Origin: a virus
Taxonomy: Duplodnaviria > Caudoviricetes
IMG/VR virus record: IMGVR_UViG_3300046460_000097
Direction: 5' to 3' (one strand)
Length of the DNA: 64,000 nucleotides
Below the pieces are notes generated by a model that worked only from the letters and a program-made list of their open reading frames with translations, made no database searches and was not told the DNA's origin. Each line of letters starts with the position of its first letter. Position 1 is the first letter of the stretch. Shown here piece by piece: positions 41,575-58,162 of this stretch. The position numbers were made by a program, and so were the translations under genes.

Positions 41575-43743
41575 ATGGCCTTTAAAACAGTCAATGCGGC
41601 GCTGAAGAATACCGGTAACCTCTTCCACGCCGTCAAGCAAGCCCTGGGTTCCCAAAAGCTCAACTCCGTCGTTGGGGCTGAGTCGTTCGAATCGTTCCAA
41701 CAAGGTCTCGGCGGTGTTGCCGGGATGGAAAGCCAGCAACTGACCACCCTGATGGGCAAGGTCACCGGCAAGACCTACGACGCGTTCGCCGCATCGCTGG
41801 GTCGTGAAGGCATCCCTTCCGCCGAAATGCAGGTTTTCGAAGAAGCCGGTAAAGCCCTCGCCAGCGTTGCTGGTAACGAAGGCTTCTCCATGCAGAACTT
41901 CAAGGGCAGCGAGACCGACATCAAAGCGGCCAACCTGACTCTGAACGCTCAGTCTCACCTGCAGACCGAAGCGGCCGAAGCTCTGTTCTCCACTATCACC
42001 GTGCGTTACGAAGACGAAGGTGCAAACCTGGTTGTTCGTGCCGCTGGTATCGGTAGCTACGCCTACGGCAACAGCGCCTGGCAGTCGGCTTCCGAACTGC
42101 GCCCGATCTTCGGCCTGCTGCGTACCGGCGAAATGTTCAAGGACGAAGTCCTGGACCTGTTCCCGGTTTACCCGGACGACGCTCAGGACGACACCCGTCT
42201 GTTCTTCGTCGACGACACCCTGATCGCGCCGACCACCGCTACCTACCCTGAGGCTGACGCCTACGGCCGTAGCTCGCACGCCACTCAGTACCTGAAGGTT
42301 CCTGGCACCGTGCCAAACCTGCTGGGTCTGTGCCAAGCTCCTGGCCAGCGCGCCTGGACTTCGACTGACGAGATCGAAAGCAACTCGATCACCATCAAGT
42401 CGGTAGCTGTCACCCTGAAACTCGGCGCCACCGCCGGCAAGTTCTTCGTCAACACCAAGTCGATGTCGAACAACACCTTCGGTCCGACCTCCCAAGGTCA
42501 GTCGTCCGACGACCGTGCAATCAACATGCACATGCGCGACCTGCCAGGCTTCTCGGTTCAGAACAAAGACGGCGCTGCTATCGGCGAAACTCTGTTCGCA
42601 TCGTTCAAGACTGCCGGTTACGAGCCTCTGCTGAACATCAGCCTGAGCGGTAACTACCAGCGTCAAACCAACGAGCTGCGTCTTGCTTCCGGCCAAGCGA
42701 CCGTGCATTCCCTGCGCGAAATCGCTACCGGCAACACCATCTCCGTTGCTCGCGCTGACAGCACTCAGAAAGCTCTGATCCGCAGCATGACTGAAGGCGC
42801 TGTAGTTGGTCTGGACGCTGGCTTCAACGTGTCCAACACCAGCCGTGGCAACTTCGGCTACCGCATCGAAGTCTTCGACGCCAACAAGCGTCTGAGCGTT
42901 CGTCGCAACAGCCCGGTGTCGGTGAAGTACCCAATCTCTGCTGACGACGTTAACCAGGGTTCCCTGGACTTCGCCATCCAGCAGATGTCGATCGCGATCA
43001 ACAACCAGTGCTCCAAGAAGGCGTTCGACGTCGCTCAGGAACACTTGAAGTACATCACTTCGATCGACGGCGCTCCAGTTGTCGGCAACAACCAAGGTTC
43101 CAACGTGCTGCCAGGTCAGCACTACGTTACCGCGGCTGCTGTCAACCGCAGCATCAAGCTGGCCGACCGCGTGTCGTCCATGGACTCGATGGACGTGTTC
43201 GACAACGTCTCTGCTGTGTTCCTGAACGAAATCAGCGACATCACCTCCGCACTGAACACCAAGTCCGGCCTGGCGGCTATCGCTGAATACGGCGGTACTG
43301 ACAAGATCGAATGGACCGTCGTGGTTCACCAGAACTTGAGCCGCTTCCTGATGCGTTCGGGCGATGCTCGTAGCCTCGGCCCTACCGTGCCGATGAAAGT
43401 GGTTGAGACCAACTTCGACAGCCAGATCGGGCAAATCCTGATCGTGCCGAAGAACAACTCCACCAACGAGTTCATCAACCCGCTGGGCGGCATCGGCGTG
43501 AATGTCTCGAAAGAGAACATCCTCGTTCAAGGTAACGTGACTCGTGACCAACAGGACTTCGGTGTCGTAATGACCCTGCCGACCTTCCGTCACTGGCCGC
43601 TGAACCCGATCATCGGCTCGCTGATCATCGAAGATGCGCGTGAGTTCCTGGGCGACAACGGTCTGCTGACCAAGCTGGCTGTTCAGCGTGTTAGCGTTCA
43701 AGGCGTTGTTGATACCAACGACACCACTCCCCCAAACCCGTAA
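41575..43743 (+). CDS. Major capsid protein (phiKZ gp120-like)
   Basis: 722 aa with extreme codon bias, a propeptide with GAE/GME/GNE sites and the DnaB-gp119-MCP order. Confidence 0.9.
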   Translation: MAFKTVNAALKNTGNLFHAVKQALGSQKLNSVVGAESFESFQQGLGGVAGMESQQLTTLMGKVTGKTYDAFAASLGREGIPSAEMQVFEEAGKALASVAGNEGFSMQNFKGSETDIKAANLTLNAQSHLQTEAAEALFSTITVRYEDEGANLVVRAAGIGSYAYGNSAWQSASELRPIFGLLRTGEMFKDEVLDLFPVYPDDAQDDTRLFFVDDTLIAPTTATYPEADAYGRSSHATQYLKVPGTVPNLLGLCQAPGQRAWTSTDEIESNSITIKSVAVTLKLGATAGKFFVNTKSMSNNTFGPTSQGQSSDDRAINMHMRDLPGFSVQNKDGAAIGETLFASFKTAGYEPLLNISLSGNYQRQTNELRLASGQATVHSLREIATGNTISVARADSTQKALIRSMTEGAVVGLDAGFNVSNTSRGNFGYRIEVFDANKRLSVRRNSPVSVKYPISADDVNQGSLDFAIQQMSIAINNQCSKKAFDVAQEHLKYITSIDGAPVVGNNQGSNVLPGQHYVTAAAVNRSIKLADRVSSMDSMDVFDNVSAVFLNEISDITSALNTKSGLAAIAEYGGTDKIEWTVVVHQNLSRFLMRSGDARSLGPTVPMKVVETNFDSQIGQILIVPKNNSTNEFINPLGGIGVNVSKENILVQGNVTRDQQDFGVVMTLPTFRHWPLNPIIGSLIIEDAREFLGDNGLLTKLAVQRVSVQGVVDTNDTTPPNP

Positions 43744-43794
43744 GCCTGCCGTCCACCTATTACGGTGAGTTATCACCAGGTGGGTGAGTCAGGC
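43731..43794 (+). other. Predicted -1 frameshift signal: C_CCA_AAC, 6-nt spacer, nested stem-loop
   Basis: The heptamer is in frame one codon before the stop. Stems: GCCTG/CAGGC, CCACCT/AGGTGG and GGTGA/TCACC. The -1 frame reads PVSLPSTYYGELSPGG-stop (TGA 43785-43787). Confidence 0.7.
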
Positions 43795-43825: not shown

Positions 43826-43857
43826 CCTCCTACCATGCCTTAGGGTGTGGTAGGAGG
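43826..43857 (+). terminator. MCP terminator
   Basis: CCTCCTACCATGCC-TTAG-GGTGTGGTAGGAGG: 14-bp stem with T-rich tail. Confidence 0.75.
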
Positions 43858-43893
43858 TAGGGTCTATTTTGCATTTTGTTATTTCAGTAAAGA

Positions 43894-50885: not shown

Positions 50886-53870
50886 TTATGCACCTTTCCA
50901 AGGGTTGTAGTTAGGATCGGTTGGATCGTCACTACCCGCTTTGGAACCATCGACAGGAGGCTCTTCTTCTCCTTCTGCCTTCTCTTCACCCTCTACAGGT
51001 TCAGCAGGTGGCTCTTCACCGTCTGCTGGAGGAGTCTCACCATCAGGCATCGGTGGCGGCTCATCTACATTGACAGTGCTGTCATCAGGCTCACCAGTGC
51101 CAGCGAGGTCGTCGTCACCCGTAGGCTCCACGTCATCCGGTTCACCAGTACCGCCTAGGCCGCCTTCGTCACCCAAAGGTTCTTCAGGTGGAGCGTTGGC
51201 TGCCAGCTTCTTGTCGATCTTGCCTTTGTATTCCTTGAGCAGCTTGCCGTCAGCATCGGAACGCTCAATGATAAGCTTGGCCACAAAGTCAGCAACGTTG
51301 TTACGCTGGTGAACGATATGGTGTACCAAGGAAGCAATACCACCGCCTTTACCTTCGTTGACAATCTCATCGAACGGCATTGGCAGGTTGAATCGCTTGA
51401 AGGCCTCAGTCTTCAGTACAGACTTGATCATGGCCTTGATCTCATCCGCAGAGAAGTCTTCTGCCTCAATACCCAGCAACTTGATCATCTGAGCCATGAC
51501 CACCCCAGTACCCGACAGCTCTTCCCACGACGCCACCAGCTTATCTACCGCTTCCAGACTCTCAATGAGTTTGTTGGTGGTTTCAGTGCTGGTAGGTACA
51601 GGCAGCGTGCAGTAGATGGAGTTGAAGAAGTCAGCCAGAATAATCTTGACCTTAGCTTCATCCTCACCTTCAATCACTTCCTTACTGTCAGGAACCCACA
51701 TCTTCTTGTTGTCGAGAACACACTGTACCAGCGCTTGCATCAACGGACCGTTTACACGAGCATGCTTACGCTGGAAGTCGATCACGAAGTTAGCGATCTC
51801 GGTCTGCCAGTTCACCGCTTGGTTGAAAACCATTTGGTGTTCGGTAATAGCTTCGATCTGGAAGTTGTTCTGATCGTCGCTCACATCCAGCCATGCACGA
51901 GGCAGGTTGAAGTAGTTGGCGATCGAGTTCAACACAGCATCACGGCTAGCGGTATCTACCGCGTGGAAGTTGTCCTTCTGCTTACCTGTGGTTTGAATGT
52001 CAGGAGTAGGCAGGTGAACGTTATCCCCGGCATTAACCTTTACCGACAACGAGGATTCTCGCAGGGCATCAACAATAGACGGAACAGACAACTGAGCCGT
52101 AGACAACAGACTGTGCAACCGCGGGTTAGCCTCAAAGAAGGTAGCCCGAGCAATAGCAATGGTGGCCTCAGGGTCCGCATCCTCCTTCTCCACGTTGATA
52201 GTCATCTCGGTGTGAGGTTGGGCGGCTTCAAGGTTAGCCAAGGCGTCAGCGAGGTCGTAGGCAGCCAGACGAGCGATGTGCATCTTGGCCGACTGAGTCA
52301 ACGACTGACCAGTACCCAGGCGGTTGAACTTCAGAGCGCCGTAAGTAATAGCCTCACCTGGAACATACAGGCAGCGCACACCCTGACGACGCCAGAGACG
52401 GGACAAGAAGATCTTGTTGGTTTCTTCGTCAATAGTGACACTGACGGAGTCGCCTTTACCGCTCACGACTGAAGACACGAACCGACGGATCAGACTGCTT
52501 TGCGCAAGGTCGATGAACTCGCGCATGTCGAAGTCACATGGCTTGCCTTCCTGAACCATCCGCAGACTGGAGATCAGACTGTTGTCGCTACCGTTCTTGG
52601 GCTTGTTAGCCACTTGATCGGCTTGGGCCTTGGTTGACTGATAGAAGTCAGGATCAACCGTGGTCTTCAGGAAGTTACCCTGATCGTCAAGCAGAATGAT
52701 GTAGTCGTCGATCTGACGGCTAGAACCGTTGTGGTGAATTGGGATAACCGCTTCACTAGGAATGTGCCAGCTCAGGCCACGACCGTAGGGTGCTACCGAC
52801 AGAGTGTCGATTGGCTTAACGTACTGCATGGTCTGATGGCGGATATCACGAGCCTTGTAGATCTCGCGGTTAATCGCTTCCATCTGATCTTCGGTCAAGT
52901 TCTGAGTAGTAGCGTCAGGACCGTCTGCCGTCTTCGCTTTCTTCTTCTTGTCACTTTGCATGGCAGAAGAGATAACGAGGTCGAAACTCTCGACACCCAT
53001 GATCGAGTTAATGTCCTGATCCCGCACTGCTTCGTTGAACTTCTGCAGATAAAGGATAGCCGGGTTATCGGTCAGGGTGATCTTGAACAGGTTGTCCGGA
53101 TCTTCTTCTTTACTGAAGATGTTGAACTCGGTGCCGTTGTAAGCAGGACGGTCACCCAAGATCGCTTCCAGACCACTGACCGCATTCTTGTCAGCAGCCG
53201 AATGCGGATCACGAACGAAGAAGCCTTTGTTACGCGCTCGCTTGACACCACTGACATCCACGAACTCGTGGTCAAGGTGTTGCTTAGCCTGTAGGCGGAA
53301 GGCTTCGTTACCCGTACGACCTTCAGGGCTATTTGGATCAGCGGCAGAACCGTTAATCAAATAATCCAGACCTGGACGACTGAGGTTAAACAGAACATAA
53401 CTCCCTGTATTCCACAGGATGTCATTGATCATTTTACCCAGTTCTGGCTCGATCTTATAGTCGTTGGTGAAGTAATTATCCCACACCGTCAACAACTCGG
53501 CGTGGAGACCAGCATTCTTCAGCTTCGTCGTTTGAGTGTCGTAGGTCAACACTTTGTCTTGCTTACCGTTAGGGTAGAGCAGGATGGTGTTCCAAATCAG
53601 CTCAGCTTTATCAATGTACGGCGTGATAGCCCGCAGATCGGTACTGGCATTGATGTTGTTGCTGATGATGTCACTCAAGCGTTGCAGCTTGTAAGGATTG
53701 ACAGTTTCTCTACCTTTGCCTTCATTGGCATCAGGAGTTTGGCCATTTTTGGGAACCGCGTTGCGCAGAGTGGCAGCAATGGCGGGGGATACGGATTTAA
53801 GATCTTCACGAATTCTCGTGTAGTCAACCCGTTCATTCCCTCTTGTCGTACCGCGTGTTTCGAACCCCAT
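50886..53870 (-). CDS. Probable portal protein (phiKZ gp129-like) with acidic C-terminal tail
   Basis: 994 aa from MGFETRG (GAGG RBS; the track's upstream extension overlaps the divergent gene). The assignment comes from size and synteny. Confidence 0.6.
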   Translation of the reverse strand: MGFETRGTTRGNERVDYTRIREDLKSVSPAIAATLRNAVPKNGQTPDANEGKGRETVNPYKLQRLSDIISNNINASTDLRAITPYIDKAELIWNTILLYPNGKQDKVLTYDTQTTKLKNAGLHAELLTVWDNYFTNDYKIEPELGKMINDILWNTGSYVLFNLSRPGLDYLINGSAADPNSPEGRTGNEAFRLQAKQHLDHEFVDVSGVKRARNKGFFVRDPHSAADKNAVSGLEAILGDRPAYNGTEFNIFSKEEDPDNLFKITLTDNPAILYLQKFNEAVRDQDINSIMGVESFDLVISSAMQSDKKKKAKTADGPDATTQNLTEDQMEAINREIYKARDIRHQTMQYVKPIDTLSVAPYGRGLSWHIPSEAVIPIHHNGSSRQIDDYIILLDDQGNFLKTTVDPDFYQSTKAQADQVANKPKNGSDNSLISSLRMVQEGKPCDFDMREFIDLAQSSLIRRFVSSVVSGKGDSVSVTIDEETNKIFLSRLWRRQGVRCLYVPGEAITYGALKFNRLGTGQSLTQSAKMHIARLAAYDLADALANLEAAQPHTEMTINVEKEDADPEATIAIARATFFEANPRLHSLLSTAQLSVPSIVDALRESSLSVKVNAGDNVHLPTPDIQTTGKQKDNFHAVDTASRDAVLNSIANYFNLPRAWLDVSDDQNNFQIEAITEHQMVFNQAVNWQTEIANFVIDFQRKHARVNGPLMQALVQCVLDNKKMWVPDSKEVIEGEDEAKVKIILADFFNSIYCTLPVPTSTETTNKLIESLEAVDKLVASWEELSGTGVVMAQMIKLLGIEAEDFSADEIKAMIKSVLKTEAFKRFNLPMPFDEIVNEGKGGGIASLVHHIVHQRNNVADFVAKLIIERSDADGKLLKEYKGKIDKKLAANAPPEEPLGDEGGLGGTGEPDDVEPTGDDDLAGTGEPDDSTVNVDEPPPMPDGETPPADGEEPPAEPVEGEEKAEGEEEPPVDGSKAGSDDPTDPNYNPWKGA

Positions 53871-53891: not shown

Positions 53892-56174
53892 ATGAATAGT
53901 GTCGATCTTGATCAGTATTATGCGGACACTTTCAGCCTTGTTCGGACCATGGTTATCAAAATCGAGGCCTTGGCCGACAGAGATAACTTGGTACTGACTA
54001 AAGCTGGGCATCCCGTATCCACGGATAAAACATCGTGGCGTTATTACATGAACTTGAATGGAGACTACCACCCCACCGATGAGGTGATGTGGATCAACTC
54101 CATTGATACCGGTGAGCAGATTGTTTTCAACAAGGATAGCTTGTTGCTGCACCTCGCAACGAATCGCGAGTACAGTAAAGGAGGCTATTGGTTCAACCGT
54201 TTGGTCGAACGCTATCCTGGGCAGTCTACTCTGATTAACGGCATACTCTCGCCCATCCCGTACTCCGAGACGATCGAGGCTAAAGACTATAAGATCCTGC
54301 GCTACAACAAGAAATTAGTGTTGTGGAACGAGGATCAGCTCATCAAGAAATTGCAGCTGTTTGTGGACAGTGACGTGAGTCATTCGTTCAAGAACGACTA
54401 CATTACGACTGATGACTTGTTCTTGCCGTTGATGATTGAGAAGTTGCACATCGATGTCATGGGTGCAATTCATGCGATCCGCCTAGAAGATTGTTTTACT
54501 CGGCATACGCACGAGTTCTTCATCTGGAGCCACATCGATTCTTTCGGTGATTTCTCCCAGTACAAGGCCAGTCTCTCCAAAGAACAGACCATGTGGCTGT
54601 TCCGCAACATCGCTTGGATCCGCAACAACCCAGGCCAGCAGTACACCTTTAATAAGCTGATGCACAACATACTGACTCGCGCCAGTGTGCCATTGGCTAA
54701 GTTCGACATGGTAGAGTCCACTGAAACTCAGTTGGAAGATTTAACCCCTACCCCTCTGTACCGTCGGATGCAGATGAACCTTATCGATACTTACGGGCGC
54801 GCTGCCACGTTTATCGATACCGAAGCCATGATCCTGAAGCAACAGATGGAGGCTACGGAGAACTACGACCAGACCGCTACCTATCTGGAAGATGCTCTGG
54901 TCAAGGGTACGTACAGTCTGCACTCTGAGCTGCCTACCAAAACGCTTGAGTCGGCTATGGCTGACTACACCAACCGACACATCGATACATTGATGAAGGT
55001 GGTGTACAACGAGTGGATCTACTTGGCGGGTAAGAAGGTCTATCAAGGCAACATCATTACCGTGGACCCCAAGACGGGTAAACAATACCGTTTCCCGGTA
55101 GCTGACGCCTACCACATCTGGAAGTTCCTCGTCGAGCACAGTAAGGGTGAAAGCCCCCTGCGTATCTGCAAGGTCTACTACCAGAACGTGTTGAAGTTAA
55201 AAGCACCAACCGTTGAGCAGCTCATTGAGATCGGGGGTCCCGATTTCATTCGTCCTTATGTGGCTCAGGACATTCGCAATATTTGGGCGCCTGTTACCCC
55301 ATTTGTGTCCCCGGATTATCTGATCCAGTACTCTACCGAAGTCTACACGAACATGTGGAAACATCGGAAGCTGTACAGCAAGTGGTATGACTTGAACCTG
55401 CGGGCAAGGGCCAAGAACACCTGTGACTTCATGTACGACTCGGGGATCATCAAACTCGGGAACTACACCAATTACGACTCGTTGCTGGAAACCTACGAGC
55501 TCGACTTCAGTGAATACACTGCGGCCGAAGCCAAGGCCTTTGCTTGGGACATCTTTAAACGTGTCACAGGCTGGGATACCAACCAGCATCCGTCTACTCG
55601 GGTCAAACAGGCTGACTTGATTGCGATCATGACACAGCTGTCGTCTTACACCGTGCAGTTCGTTAAGAAGATTGACGACGGTACGGATCAGACAGAGCTG
55701 AAGAACGATCTGTTCGTTGGCGATAGCCGTTGGGTGGGCCAAGGTAACGGTAGCTATGGCGATTTCAAACACGTCATGCTCAACGTGGACACCAACAACG
55801 ACGCAAGCAACGCCCTGAAGTCTGTTACAGCTGTTATAGACTCTTACCAGCCTAAGCTAGTCGTTGATATGGCTGCGAAGGCAACGATCGTTACACACGA
55901 TCTGGTGAAGTCTGTCGACGTCATCAAAGACCTGCGTATCAATGCGTTGAAGTTCCCAAACACTGGACACATCCGAATCCTCACGGAAGAAGAGTTCCAG
56001 CCTAAGGAGATTCCAGGTACGTACTACGGCGAACTGTTTGCTGACCCAGTCGAAATCCCAGGCACCTATTACGGGGAACTGGAAGAAGACGTGATGGGTG
56101 CTTACCAGTACTCGTTCCCTGAAACGTATTACAAAGTCCTGAAAGCTAACGGCGACCTTGACCTCGGAGAATAA
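53892..56174 (+). CDS. Virion structural protein (phiKZ gp128-like) with C-terminal PxTYYGEL repeats
   Basis: 760 aa, divergent from portal; ends EIPGTYYGEL...EIPGTYYGEL...SFPETYYKVL. Confidence 0.7.
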   Translation: MNSVDLDQYYADTFSLVRTMVIKIEALADRDNLVLTKAGHPVSTDKTSWRYYMNLNGDYHPTDEVMWINSIDTGEQIVFNKDSLLLHLATNREYSKGGYWFNRLVERYPGQSTLINGILSPIPYSETIEAKDYKILRYNKKLVLWNEDQLIKKLQLFVDSDVSHSFKNDYITTDDLFLPLMIEKLHIDVMGAIHAIRLEDCFTRHTHEFFIWSHIDSFGDFSQYKASLSKEQTMWLFRNIAWIRNNPGQQYTFNKLMHNILTRASVPLAKFDMVESTETQLEDLTPTPLYRRMQMNLIDTYGRAATFIDTEAMILKQQMEATENYDQTATYLEDALVKGTYSLHSELPTKTLESAMADYTNRHIDTLMKVVYNEWIYLAGKKVYQGNIITVDPKTGKQYRFPVADAYHIWKFLVEHSKGESPLRICKVYYQNVLKLKAPTVEQLIEIGGPDFIRPYVAQDIRNIWAPVTPFVSPDYLIQYSTEVYTNMWKHRKLYSKWYDLNLRARAKNTCDFMYDSGIIKLGNYTNYDSLLETYELDFSEYTAAEAKAFAWDIFKRVTGWDTNQHPSTRVKQADLIAIMTQLSSYTVQFVKKIDDGTDQTELKNDLFVGDSRWVGQGNGSYGDFKHVMLNVDTNNDASNALKSVTAVIDSYQPKLVVDMAAKATIVTHDLVKSVDVIKDLRINALKFPNTGHIRILTEEEFQPKEIPGTYYGELFADPVEIPGTYYGELEEDVMGAYQYSFPETYYKVLKANGDLDLGE

Positions 56175-56177
56175 CAC

Positions 56178-56582
56178 TTGAACATACAGGTGCTAAGTCT
56201 TATCAAGCAGCGGTATTGCGAGGACAACGCCATCAGTGACCCTGAGTCGATTGCAATGTCCTTCTGCCAAGCGGAGAAGGGCACCGGCAACCCCATCATG
56301 TTTGTACTACGTGATGGGAAGTCGTCGACCTACGTTCACCAGCGGATCGACCTAGCAGGTTTGTCCGCTCATCGGGCTTTGGATATTCCTGCCGCATTCC
56401 GCAACGTTAAACAAGCCGATCTCAGCAAAGTGTTCATTGCAGATTGGGTTTACCAGTTCACGGGACACCGTATTCTGGTTGAAGACATACAAACCATGGC
56501 GCTAGAGAAAAAGGCTATTCAGGTGATCATTTCACCGGATTCTATGCGCTTTAAAAATAGCTTCCAGCTAATCCGTCTATAG
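56178..56582 (+). CDS. Small hypothetical virion-region protein
   Basis: 134 aa, TTG start with GGAG 8 nt upstream. Confidence 0.55.
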   Translation: MNIQVLSLIKQRYCEDNAISDPESIAMSFCQAEKGTGNPIMFVLRDGKSSTYVHQRIDLAGLSAHRALDIPAAFRNVKQADLSKVFIADWVYQFTGHRILVEDIQTMALEKKAIQVIISPDSMRFKNSFQLIRL

Positions 56583-56595
56583 GGATTTTTTCATT

Positions 56596-57525
56596 ATGGC
56601 TCTTTCTGCAACAGAAATTCAAGACCAGAACCGTTCCGAGGTTCCTACTCAGTCGGTAACCAACACTGGCTGGGGGAACATCATCACCAAATGCGTGGTT
56701 ACTCGCCAACCGTTTAACCTCCCACAATACACCACGCTGAACGAGCGCTACAACATCCTGGCGACCCAGTCCATCGGGCCGAAGAACGGTAAGGACTTCG
56801 AACTGAAGTACTTTGGTGTGGGTATCCGTGGTTCCGACTGCGATGGCAAGAACCTCCTTGGCGCTACCAAGATGAAGGTCAACCAGCACCAGCCGAAAGA
56901 CGCCAACCTGTTCGTGCCGATCCCGTTCGCCTGCCGTCCAGTTGCCAGCGACTTCGACAACGTCAACCGCGGCAAGTACCGCATGCGTACCGTTCAAGAC
57001 GTCAACGGTGTGGCCACCGCGTTCTATTGGTTGAAGCTGATCAGTTTCGCCAACTACAACCCGCAGGTCATGGTTATTACCCGTGACGAGAACAACAACG
57101 AAACGCCAGTTCCGTACATCCCTGAGAAAGACGACCTGTTCAACCCAACCCCGGTCGACTTCATCAGCACTGGCTCGGTGCCTATCAGCAACGTCTACAT
57201 GAACAGCTCCGCTATCCTGGACTGCTCGTTGGACCAAGCCGACCTGACCGAAATGGAAAACGCCTGCCGCATTCTGTACGGCGATGCTTCCCTGGCTGCA
57301 CCGAACGAAGTGGGCATTGCCTACGGCATCGACACCCAGACCGACGGCCAGATCGGCCAAGGCGCCGTGATTCGCTACACTGAAGTACTGAGTGCTGTCT
57401 ATGCTCACTACATCACTGAGCGCGATGCACGTTCCGCCCTGAACAACGTTCGTCTGCAATACGCATTCGACCACGGCGCCAGCGAACCAATGCTGTTGCA
57501 CACCAACGCCACTGTCGCACCTTAA
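56596..57525 (+). CDS. Virion structural protein
   Basis: 309 aa, beta-rich with strong codon bias. Confidence 0.7.
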   Translation: MALSATEIQDQNRSEVPTQSVTNTGWGNIITKCVVTRQPFNLPQYTTLNERYNILATQSIGPKNGKDFELKYFGVGIRGSDCDGKNLLGATKMKVNQHQPKDANLFVPIPFACRPVASDFDNVNRGKYRMRTVQDVNGVATAFYWLKLISFANYNPQVMVITRDENNNETPVPYIPEKDDLFNPTPVDFISTGSVPISNVYMNSSAILDCSLDQADLTEMENACRILYGDASLAAPNEVGIAYGIDTQTDGQIGQGAVIRYTEVLSAVYAHYITERDARSALNNVRLQYAFDHGASEPMLLHTNATVAP

Positions 57526-57541: not shown

Positions 57542-58162
57542 ATGAGCATTCCTGATATCCTGAAAGGGGGCGTTCATTTGCCCCTGACGGTTAGCACCAC
57601 TTCGGCTCAAGCTATCGCTTTGGCTAACGGGTTCTACCAGACCGAGTTAGATGTTAACGACTACAAGGAGACACAAGCCTTCTGGGGAGTCGATAACGTC
57701 TTACAGCTGGATCTCATCGATCCGGAGTCTGGCGAGGTGCTGGAGAGCTTCTACAACCGTTCTACGGGGAATAAGCTCAGTGCCGCAGCAGAACCAATGC
57801 TGATGCTCAGTAATCCAATGGATCCAAGCCAGTTTGTTTCCTGGATGGGTCCTGTGATTGTCGTGCATGACGCAAAGGAGCTGGAGTTCCTCAGCGGATT
57901 GGGCTCGGGTAATACCTATCCAATCTTCGGCGTAGACAACAACATTCCGTATCAGTTGTCGTCTTTGCTGAACTCCTACCAATTTATTGGTAGCTGGGTG
58001 TCCGGTACTATGGGTGAATATGCAACTGGTGGTTTCACTCTGGTCTATCTCGGCCCAAGCAGCGAAGCCCCAGAAGAACTCCTGGTGGACTACTCCCCCA
58101 ACATTGCCGTGATCCAAATCAACCACGGTGAACAAAAAGGATACATATGCCTGAGGACGTAA
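57542..58162 (+). CDS. Hypothetical virion-region protein
   Basis: 206 aa with GGAG upstream. Confidence 0.65.
   Translation: MSIPDILKGGVHLPLTVSTTSAQAIALANGFYQTELDVNDYKETQAFWGVDNVLQLDLIDPESGEVLESFYNRSTGNKLSAAAEPMLMLSNPMDPSQFVSWMGPVIVVHDAKELEFLSGLGSGNTYPIFGVDNNIPYQLSSLLNSYQFIGSWVSGTMGEYATGGFTLVYLGPSSEAPEELLVDYSPNIAVIQINHGEQKGYICLRT

Follow-up and report, generated by a model that had tools for sequence, protein, structure and literature searches.

Tandem tags at the end of a baseplate wedge protein

The stretch of DNA analysed here (64,000 nucleotides of IMG/VR virus record IMGVR_UViG_3300046460_000097, Duplodnaviria; Caudoviricetes; hereafter the window) encodes a 760-residue protein whose C-terminal end, ...KEIPGTYYGELFADPVEIPGTYYGELEEDVMGAYQYSFPETYYKVLKANGDLDLGE, holds a short motif three times in tandem: EIPGTYYGEL, a second EIPGTYYGEL and a degenerate SFPETYYKVL, with prolines encoded at 56013, 56058 and 56118 (Table 1). 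We refer to these copies as tags. Copies 1 and 2 are told apart by 6 substitutions in 30 bases, each of them synonymous, and both the positions and the synonymous differences agree with what an earlier note on this DNA had reported. The same note described the tail that bears the tags as acidic and likely disordered, a description with which composition and modelling are in accord: the last 65 residues (696-760) hold 15 D/E against 3 K/R, and in an AlphaFold2 model made with 65 relatives a mainly helical body of high confidence (residues 1-590) is followed by about 170 residues (590-760) with a predicted local distance difference test score (pLDDT) of 40-56 and almost no secondary structure. 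By itself the tail is thus predicted to be disordered.

The protein is the baseplate wedge protein of the phage, an ortholog of phiKZ gp128, Goslar gp35 and EL gp104 and an analog of T4 gp7. Searched against chains of the PDB with phmmer, residues 2-595 match PHIKZ128 (9xqs_C) at E 2.4e-72, and two more jumbo-phage chains match at E 1e-81 to 1e-82; the open reading frame (ORF) is assigned to phrog_3222, and its tblastn match in phiKZ (128529-130316) is PHIKZ128. The closest cultured relatives of the protein are gp104 of Pseudomonas phage EL (57% identity) and its counterparts in Erwinia phages RisingSun and Joad (52%), and the phage to which the window belongs is a phiKZ-like jumbo phage on the EL/RisingSun branch. 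Of the two locations that the earlier note had allowed for this protein, the baseplate region holds good and the portal/neck does not. In the phiKZ atlas of 2026, each heterotrimer of the baseplate wedge is made up of one gp128 and two gp87, and the outer face of gp128 touches the first gp139 dimer of the outer baseplate; the body of gp128 is helix-rich (PMC13250141), as is that of our model. The phiKZ gp139 protein is dimeric and forms a band that joins the wedge to the outer baseplate. The Goslar wedge ortholog, gp35, has been equated with T4 gp7 (PMC13742148).

A six-frame scan of the whole window finds P.TYY at four places, namely the three wedge copies and position 43749, which lies in the -1 frame immediately past the stop codon of the major capsid protein gene; this is the one further clear copy that the earlier note had pointed to. 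The stricter pattern P.TYYG.L occurs three times in the window and not once in any of 100 base shuffles, confirming that the recurrence of the tag is real and far beyond chance.

The same motif in the -1 frame past the capsid gene

The capsid gene ends in two overlapping heptamers that follow the X_XXY_YYZ pattern of slippery sites, and from here the -1 frame is open to 43787. The -1 peptide past the capsid stop reads ...PKPVSLPSTYYGELSPGG*, compared below as ...LPSTYYGELSPGG. For comparison we used 17 capsid gene ends from viral contigs and EL, two of which are identical to the window, leaving 15 distinct relatives at 63-80% identity. All 15, EL and RisingSun included, have a -1 extension that contains T/A-x-Y-G-x-L and reaches a stop within about 20 codons, so that the Y-G-x-L core which the earlier note saw in both the wedge and the capsid extension is common to the two across this set. 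Around the core the peptides vary: one subclade has ...VAAAYYGVL(D/S/T)PE, other relatives ...LPDTYYGVL... or ...SPTDYGQLTV..., RisingSun ...IPSTNYGRLG and EL ...SPANYGRLEYPELP. Every relative has a slip site (C_CCA_AAY, A_AAC_CCG or CC_CCG) set against the stop; in some there are two 0-frame stops, and the slip site is bounded by a -1 stop that lies five codons upstream. In the DNA alignment of the capsid ends the invariant block is TACGG, the Y-G codons, with codons elsewhere varying. A -1 core kept while codons vary, followed by an early stop, is hard to explain without translation, and we predict that a -1 frameshift appends the tag to a fraction of the capsid subunits. A search of the literature found no report of a capsid-gene frameshift in jumbo phages; for RisingSun, existing proteomics covered 75% of the capsid protein (PMC6034870).

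Two further features of this region were seen. About 40 nucleotides past the end of the -1 extension, at 43826-43860, lies a G+C-rich hairpin followed by a T run, with a counterpart in all relatives aligned; it is probably the terminator of the capsid operon. In phiKZ (NC_004629, L036:3271-3355) the 0 frame stays open for 27 codons past the TGA of the gp120 capsid gene and reads AGKGYRYLENGTIRYLEDGNARKLEE, with repeated RYLE[ND]G, which could be a readthrough extension that parallels the -1 extension of the EL clade.

Wedge tags across the clade

Among 120 wedge orthologs gathered from public metagenomes and genomes, 77 carry one to five copies of [ILV]-P-x-T-x-Y-G-x-L, starting near residue 708, so that the motif is conserved in orthologs as the earlier note would have it. 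Over the 165 instances the proline is kept in 151, the threonine in 159, the tyrosine in 163, the glycine in all 165 and the leucine in 159, and an I, L or V precedes the proline in 160; the position between T and Y is filled by Y, D, N or F. Spacing has a mode of 17 residues, with nearly all gaps at 15-23, and the linkers vary in sequence, composition and length. A near-invariant core, variable linkers and a tail predicted to be disordered together fit the short linear motif that the earlier note had proposed.

The tags are absent from wedge relatives below about 44% identity and from phiKZ gp128. Within the clade itself about a dozen orthologs (G006 L024, P0011, P0026 and P0039 among them) stop at residue 700-709, just before the tag region, and in G006 no tag was found in any frame downstream of the wedge gene. 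Since some lineages that lack wedge tags, such as G006, keep both the capsid tag and the small tagged protein described below, the wedge tags are a clade-specific, dispensable addition of the EL/RisingSun branch to a conserved wedge body.

A small protein outside the window is a third carrier

When five complete relatives were scanned in six frames, each of them had the tag at the C-terminus of a protein of about 195 residues that is encoded outside the window and belongs to the EL gp147 family (phrog_18233). The earlier description of a motif on two proteins therefore applies within the window, and elsewhere in the genome there is a third carrier. For the small protein we used the sequence of an identical-strain contig (G014, locus L105), whose C-terminus is ...VIPPTDYGVLTNPT. 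The tag is retained in family members down to about 25% identity, and a literature search found nothing on EL gp147 itself.

The family has paralogs. The tail-fibre cluster of RisingSun encodes three that are tagged, gp197 (583 residues, with an inserted domain), gp205 and gp206. A "type B" paralog, alike in its N-domain but with another C-terminal end, ...KYDGTYKYDGTITY, is likewise present in every genome. The small-protein gene directly follows a GroEL-like chaperonin gene in EL (gp146/gp147; 149158-151626), in G003, G006 and G011, and in our own strain (L105:2425-3579); in RisingSun the tail-fibre cluster lies between the chaperonin gene and the tagged paralogs, which are 8-18 kb apart from it.

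The AlphaFold2 model of the small protein has a mean pLDDT of 92.6, and its coil tail (residues 171-190) still reaches about 88; the tag is therefore probably docked on the protein's own body and not free. The earlier note had counted a motif folded as a buried element against a docking role; this applies in part to the small protein, with its probably docked tag, and does not apply to the wedge tail. The best match of the model among PDB structures is 9xqd_0, which is phiKZ gp127 (Z 6.3, root-mean-square deviation 4.2, 126 residues; next best Z 4.2), and its best Atlas cluster is DUF7941 (template modelling score 0.47 against 0.30 for the next). The body of about 175 residues would thus have a fold like that of the DUF7941 N-terminal domain of phiKZ gp127, with scores that stand out yet are middling. 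Searched with the Pfam model of DUF7941 (PF25613), neither the small protein nor its type-B paralog nor RisingSun gp197 gives a match up to an E value of 10, while phiKZ gp127 and gp126 do match; the model finds nothing in three complete EL-like genomes, as against three matches in phiKZ. No homolog of gp147 was found in phiKZ, and with phiKZ gp127 as the query a homolog search returned only gp127 itself. The N-domain common to phiKZ gp131-135, tried as a counterpart of the small protein's N-domain, is a different family as judged by eye.

Some observations concern these paralogs and other ends of similar kind. The type-B end KYDGTYKYDGTITY was seen on no other protein. The type-B gene lies at L110:1486-2064 in our own strain and at 163313-163927 (-) in EL (NC_007623), where it is the first gene of the tail-fibre operon; its EL annotation (gp158) seems too short, at 330 nucleotides against an open frame of 204 residues. 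The RisingSun (G012) wedge tail and the type-B protein of its fibre cluster, gp201 (179457-181163), have the peptide DLGDI(T/A)(S/T)KQ in common, and more than one peptide module may be exchanged among the wedge and fibre-cluster proteins of this phage. Also in RisingSun, a 182-residue RNase H-like protein (120461-121009) ends in ...SATDTDYGYLK and has no I/L-P prefix; its tag-like end may be due to chance.

Predicted docking of the wedge tag on the small protein

We predicted the complex of the small-protein body (residues 1-176, its own tag removed) with the wedge tail (residues 696-760), both with alignments. Three runs gave an interaction prediction score from aligned errors (ipSAE) of 0.84, 0.84 and 0.88, the best of 3 controls reaching 0.21; of 80 solved complexes, 58 attained that mark, as did 2 of 110 mismatched pairs. 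The pLDDT of the partner within the complex was 47-50. In the best run the interface comprises wedge residues 702 and 704-720, that is, the first tag, with the closest contacts predicted between body residues 71-75 and 9-17 and wedge T710-L715. The wedge tag is accordingly predicted to bind the small-protein body. Memory of a solved complex is an unlikely source of this result, because the PDB models only the N-domain of gp127 and holds no like complex. The earlier note had supposed a common reader of the motif among four small neighbouring proteins (at 56178, 57542, 33124 and 31185): a reader that could be common is what the body of the third carrier is predicted to be, and this best candidate is not one of the four.

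Variation in the family alignment, read as an independent check, touches the same contacts and supports the predicted docking. All seven family members whose tag has lost the tyrosine (tags of the T-D-L-G-x-L or P-E-G-x-I-M-x-L types) have L, not F, at body position 10, and six of the seven also have no F/Y at body position 17; both positions are among the predicted contacts. At the level of clades, the extension L-x-[YF]-[PK]-E is shared by wedge and small protein in EL, G007, G009 and G013, and by the capsid extension in EL as well, and it is found on no carrier in the window's subclade.

Separately from this set, the wedge ortholog P0050 (L121:3001-5370) has P-T-P-L-G-x-L repeats, with leucine for tyrosine, and two small-protein relatives, P0160 and P0163, have T-D-L-G-x-L. 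Their contigs come from samples other than that of P0050 and cannot be paired with it; if they do come from the same phages, they would represent an independent event of co-variation.

A proposed tag-and-socket model and its alternatives

Taken together, we favour the reading, which we consider probable, that the tandem motifs are docking tags of a tag-and-socket system that serves the wedge, the capsid and the small protein. The tag would be a linear peptide of nine residues, [ILV]-P-x-T-[Y/D/N]-Y-G-x-L, and the socket the body of about 175 residues of the EL gp147-family protein, which itself ends in one tag. The wedge protein, present six times per virion, would hold out two to five tags, here three, along an acidic and flexible tail at the base of the outer baseplate, and a fraction of capsid subunits would gain one tag through the -1 frameshift at the last capsid codons. 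Socket-bearing proteins would dock on the wedge and capsid tags, and because each of them brings a tag of its own, it could either cap itself or extend the array head-to-tail into a chain. In larger paralogs of RisingSun-type phages, an extra domain sits between socket and tag, and the genes of these lie in the tail-fibre cluster. In this way identical adaptors or filaments, probably host-recognition filaments like those of the DUF7941 "fibre cloud", would be anchored at both baseplate and head, with the capsid tag on the outer surface of the virion and with a role in adsorption.

Several points weigh against this proposal. The outward orientation of the capsid protein's C-terminus is an assumption of the model, and binding, frameshift and the location of the small protein are all predictions. 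The contacts on which the three complex runs are guaranteed to agree amount to 0%, a disagreement that may come from the three alternative tag copies or may come from uncertainty. Since the socket was cut from its own tag, the score may only reflect the likeness of the wedge peptide to the family's tail, and the small protein's own tail may occupy the socket permanently in cis. Co-variation between tag and socket probably amounts to few independent events, two or three, and it is imperfect: in several genomes the capsid and small-protein tags have T-D-Y-G where the wedge has T-Y-Y-G. Lineages such as G006 manage without any wedge tags, so these are dispensable. Kinship with DUF7941 is suggested by a fold score of middling size, the Pfam search being empty up to E 10.

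The alternatives differ in what they would have read the tag. If another baseplate protein did so, the best candidate would be the gp139 ortholog (DUF7208), one dimer to each tag, or else one of the neighbours at 56178 and 57542. In phiKZ, dimer A of gp139 touches gp128 and five dimers form the band, a number that the two to five tags resemble, and here its ortholog is the second gene downstream of the wedge. Yet gp139/DUF7208 and the wedge body are both conserved in chimalliviruses that have no tags, phiKZ among them, lineages without wedge tags keep DUF7208, and a reader of this kind leaves the tags of the capsid and the small protein unexplained; we hold it to be unlikely. Slightly less likely again is that the wedge repeats are an ordered structural element, its strands pairing mutually or with neighbouring wedges, and have no partner in common with the capsid, whose -1 peptide would then be unmade or would owe its likeness to some other purpose. 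The tag is rich in beta-formers, its spacing in the wedge is fairly regular (mode 17), the small-protein tag seems docked and the capsid frameshift is a prediction, all of which suits such an element. Linkers that vary in length and composition, a copy number that runs from 0 to 5 and a tail predicted to be disordered when alone do not suit it, nor does a capsid -1 core kept across genes of 63-80% identity with varied codons and an early stop.

The adjacency of the small-protein gene and the chaperonin gene in EL, G003, G006, G011 and our own strain raises another possibility, namely that the tag is a docking signal for the phage's GroEL-like chaperonin, with the small protein as its cofactor or adaptor and the wedge and the extended capsid protein as its clients. 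Neither a cofactor nor a cognate substrate is known for the EL chaperonin, and a cofactor of an unrelated kind has not been ruled out for it (PMC7185714). The adjacency is weak evidence, because gene order is broadly conserved in the clade; the RisingSun paralogs lie 8-18 kb from the chaperonin gene in the tail-fibre cluster, the small protein has a fold like that of a baseplate protein, and a folding requirement is poorly matched by a tag that only the frameshifted minority of capsid subunits would carry. We regard this as the least probable of the three. If it were true, cognate clients and a cofactor could for the first time be named for a viral chaperonin.

Readings of the motif as a signal of another type were tried and rejected. 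A cleavage site of the prohead protease, for which we take the phiKZ rule to be S/A/G-x-E, does not fit because most tag variants lack a glutamate after the glycine; a sortase-like LPxTG signal does not fit the capsid tags of one subclade, which have no L-P-x-T; and a structural YG or choline-binding-type repeat does not fit the variable length and composition of the linkers or the predicted disorder of the tail.

Relation to known phage systems

In a paper on phage Goslar dated 6 November 2026, the chimallivirus DUF7941 proteins were described as having a globular domain at the N-terminus and, besides it, a disordered segment, which is predicted to dock on the N-domain of the next protomer as an added beta-strand; gp22 filaments were seen by electron microscopy, paralogs with carbohydrate-binding domains were noted, and the fibre cloud was proposed to be anchored at about six peripheral-baseplate sites beside gp139 (PMC13742148). 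By analogy, we regard the tag-and-socket system of the EL clade as a version of this published head-to-tail docking. Like the DUF7941 filaments (Goslar gp22/gp23, phiKZ gp126-gp127), it would consist of a globular N-domain followed by a flexible segment that docks on another protomer; each genome has several paralogs, to some of which host-recognition domains are added, the association would be with the peripheral baseplate, and the fold of the predicted reader has its best matches in phiKZ gp127 and the DUF7941 Atlas cluster. It differs in that the family is too divergent for the Pfam model, that the docking segment is a sharply defined nine-residue C-terminal tag, and that the tag also stands on proteins outside the family, in tandem on the wedge and by predicted recoding on the capsid, neither of which the Goslar paper describes. 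The sharply defined tag, the tandem anchor sites on the wedge and the predicted frameshift-added capsid anchor are what is new here; a literature search found no description of a defined C-terminal tag, of tandem wedge tags or of a recoded capsid tag.

With regard to the wedge, the likeness to phiKZ, Goslar and T4 lies in the orthologous body, whose C-terminal part faces the outer baseplate and whose outward link is to gp139, gp32 and gp8, respectively; the difference from phiKZ gp128 lies in the tail, to which the EL/RisingSun clade, some members excepted, has added tandem tags. With regard to the capsid, a parallel is found in gene 10A/10B of T7 and T3, in which a minority of the subunits acquires a short extension at the C-terminus through a slippery site close to the capsid gene's end. 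The -1 slip near the gene end is common to both systems, in our case as read from the sequence. The extension of the EL clade, in contrast, carries a motif that is common to two other virion-related proteins, and its slip site directly abuts the stop codon; the T7 10B extension is not known to have a partner and is dispensable. More distant analogies are the branched tailspike adaptors of G7C and CBA120, in which one protein offers docking sites to several others, and chaperone-usher donor-strand exchange, in which a subunit lends a peptide that fills or completes a site on the following one. These are alike in using docking sites or peptides for modular attachment, and unlike in having unrelated folds and sequences, no tandem linear tags and no recoding.

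The structures of Goslar and phiKZ leave one question: by what means, and at which place, the virion anchors its abundant DUF7941 "fibre cloud". If the tag-and-socket model is true, the EL/RisingSun clade answers it explicitly, with a tag shown 12-30 times per baseplate on the wedge and displayed on the capsid in a dose set by the frameshift, and with a divergent DUF7941-like domain as its reader. It would provide a defined peptide-domain pair that is accessible to simple binding assays, a functional reason for the conserved capsid-gene frameshift and a handle by which to engineer jumbo-phage display on head and tail, and it would extend the DUF7941 idea to a clade in which the Pfam model finds nothing.

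Gene neighbourhood of the wedge gene

Table 1. Positions of the wedge, capsid and neighbouring features in the window.
Feature	Position	Strand	Basis or remark
Major capsid protein gene, phiKZ gp120 type	41575..43743	+	Pfam PF25620 (PhiKZ_MCP), E 9.6e-146
Slippery heptamers C_CCA_AAC and A_AAC_CCG, overlapping each other, immediately ahead of the TAA stop	43731..43740	+	Sequence
Capsid -1 frame extension with one tag, ...PVSLPSTYYGELSPGG*	43737..43787	+	Lacks its own start codon
Baseplate wedge protein gene, 760 residues	53892..56174	+	PHIKZ128 match, phrog_3222
Acidic C-terminal tail, predicted disordered, residues 696-760, three tags	55977..56171	+	AlphaFold2; D/E against K/R count
Tag copy 1, EIPGTYYGEL, residues 706-715	56007..56036	+	Copy docked in the best predicted complex
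Tag copy 2, EIPGTYYGEL, residues 721-730	56052..56081	+	Differs from copy 1 at six bases, all synonymous
Tag copy 3, degenerate SFPETYYKVL, residues 741-750	56112..56141	+	Third copy of orthologs often degenerate too
Portal protein gene, divergent from the wedge gene	50886..53870	-	phrog_3004, E 1e-229; gene call in L019
134-residue neighbour, synteny conserved, reader candidate of the earlier note	56178..56582	+	Weak PHROG match only
Ortholog of phiKZ gp139 (DUF7208)	56596..57525	+	Pfam PF23838, E 6.4e-97; phiKZ gp139 PHROG; PDB PHIKZ139, E 7e-36
206-residue neighbour after the gp139 ortholog, reader candidate of the earlier note	57542..58162	+	phrog_20103, function unknown

The divergent arrangement of portal and wedge genes is the same in phiKZ (gp129/gp128) and Goslar (gp36/gp35), and the phiKZ neighbourhood has portal, wedge, small proteins and gp139 ortholog in the same arrangement as the window. 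For the 134-residue ORF at 56178 no further family match was found, and a look-up in the Atlas gave nothing usable; tried as a tag-less relative of the reader family, it was rejected at an hhalign probability of 0.3. The 206-residue ORF at 57542 has weak language-model leads to beta-trefoil lectins or inhibitors, at 0.84-0.87 and so below the 0.9 line, and it sits where Goslar has the DUF7941 protein gp31.

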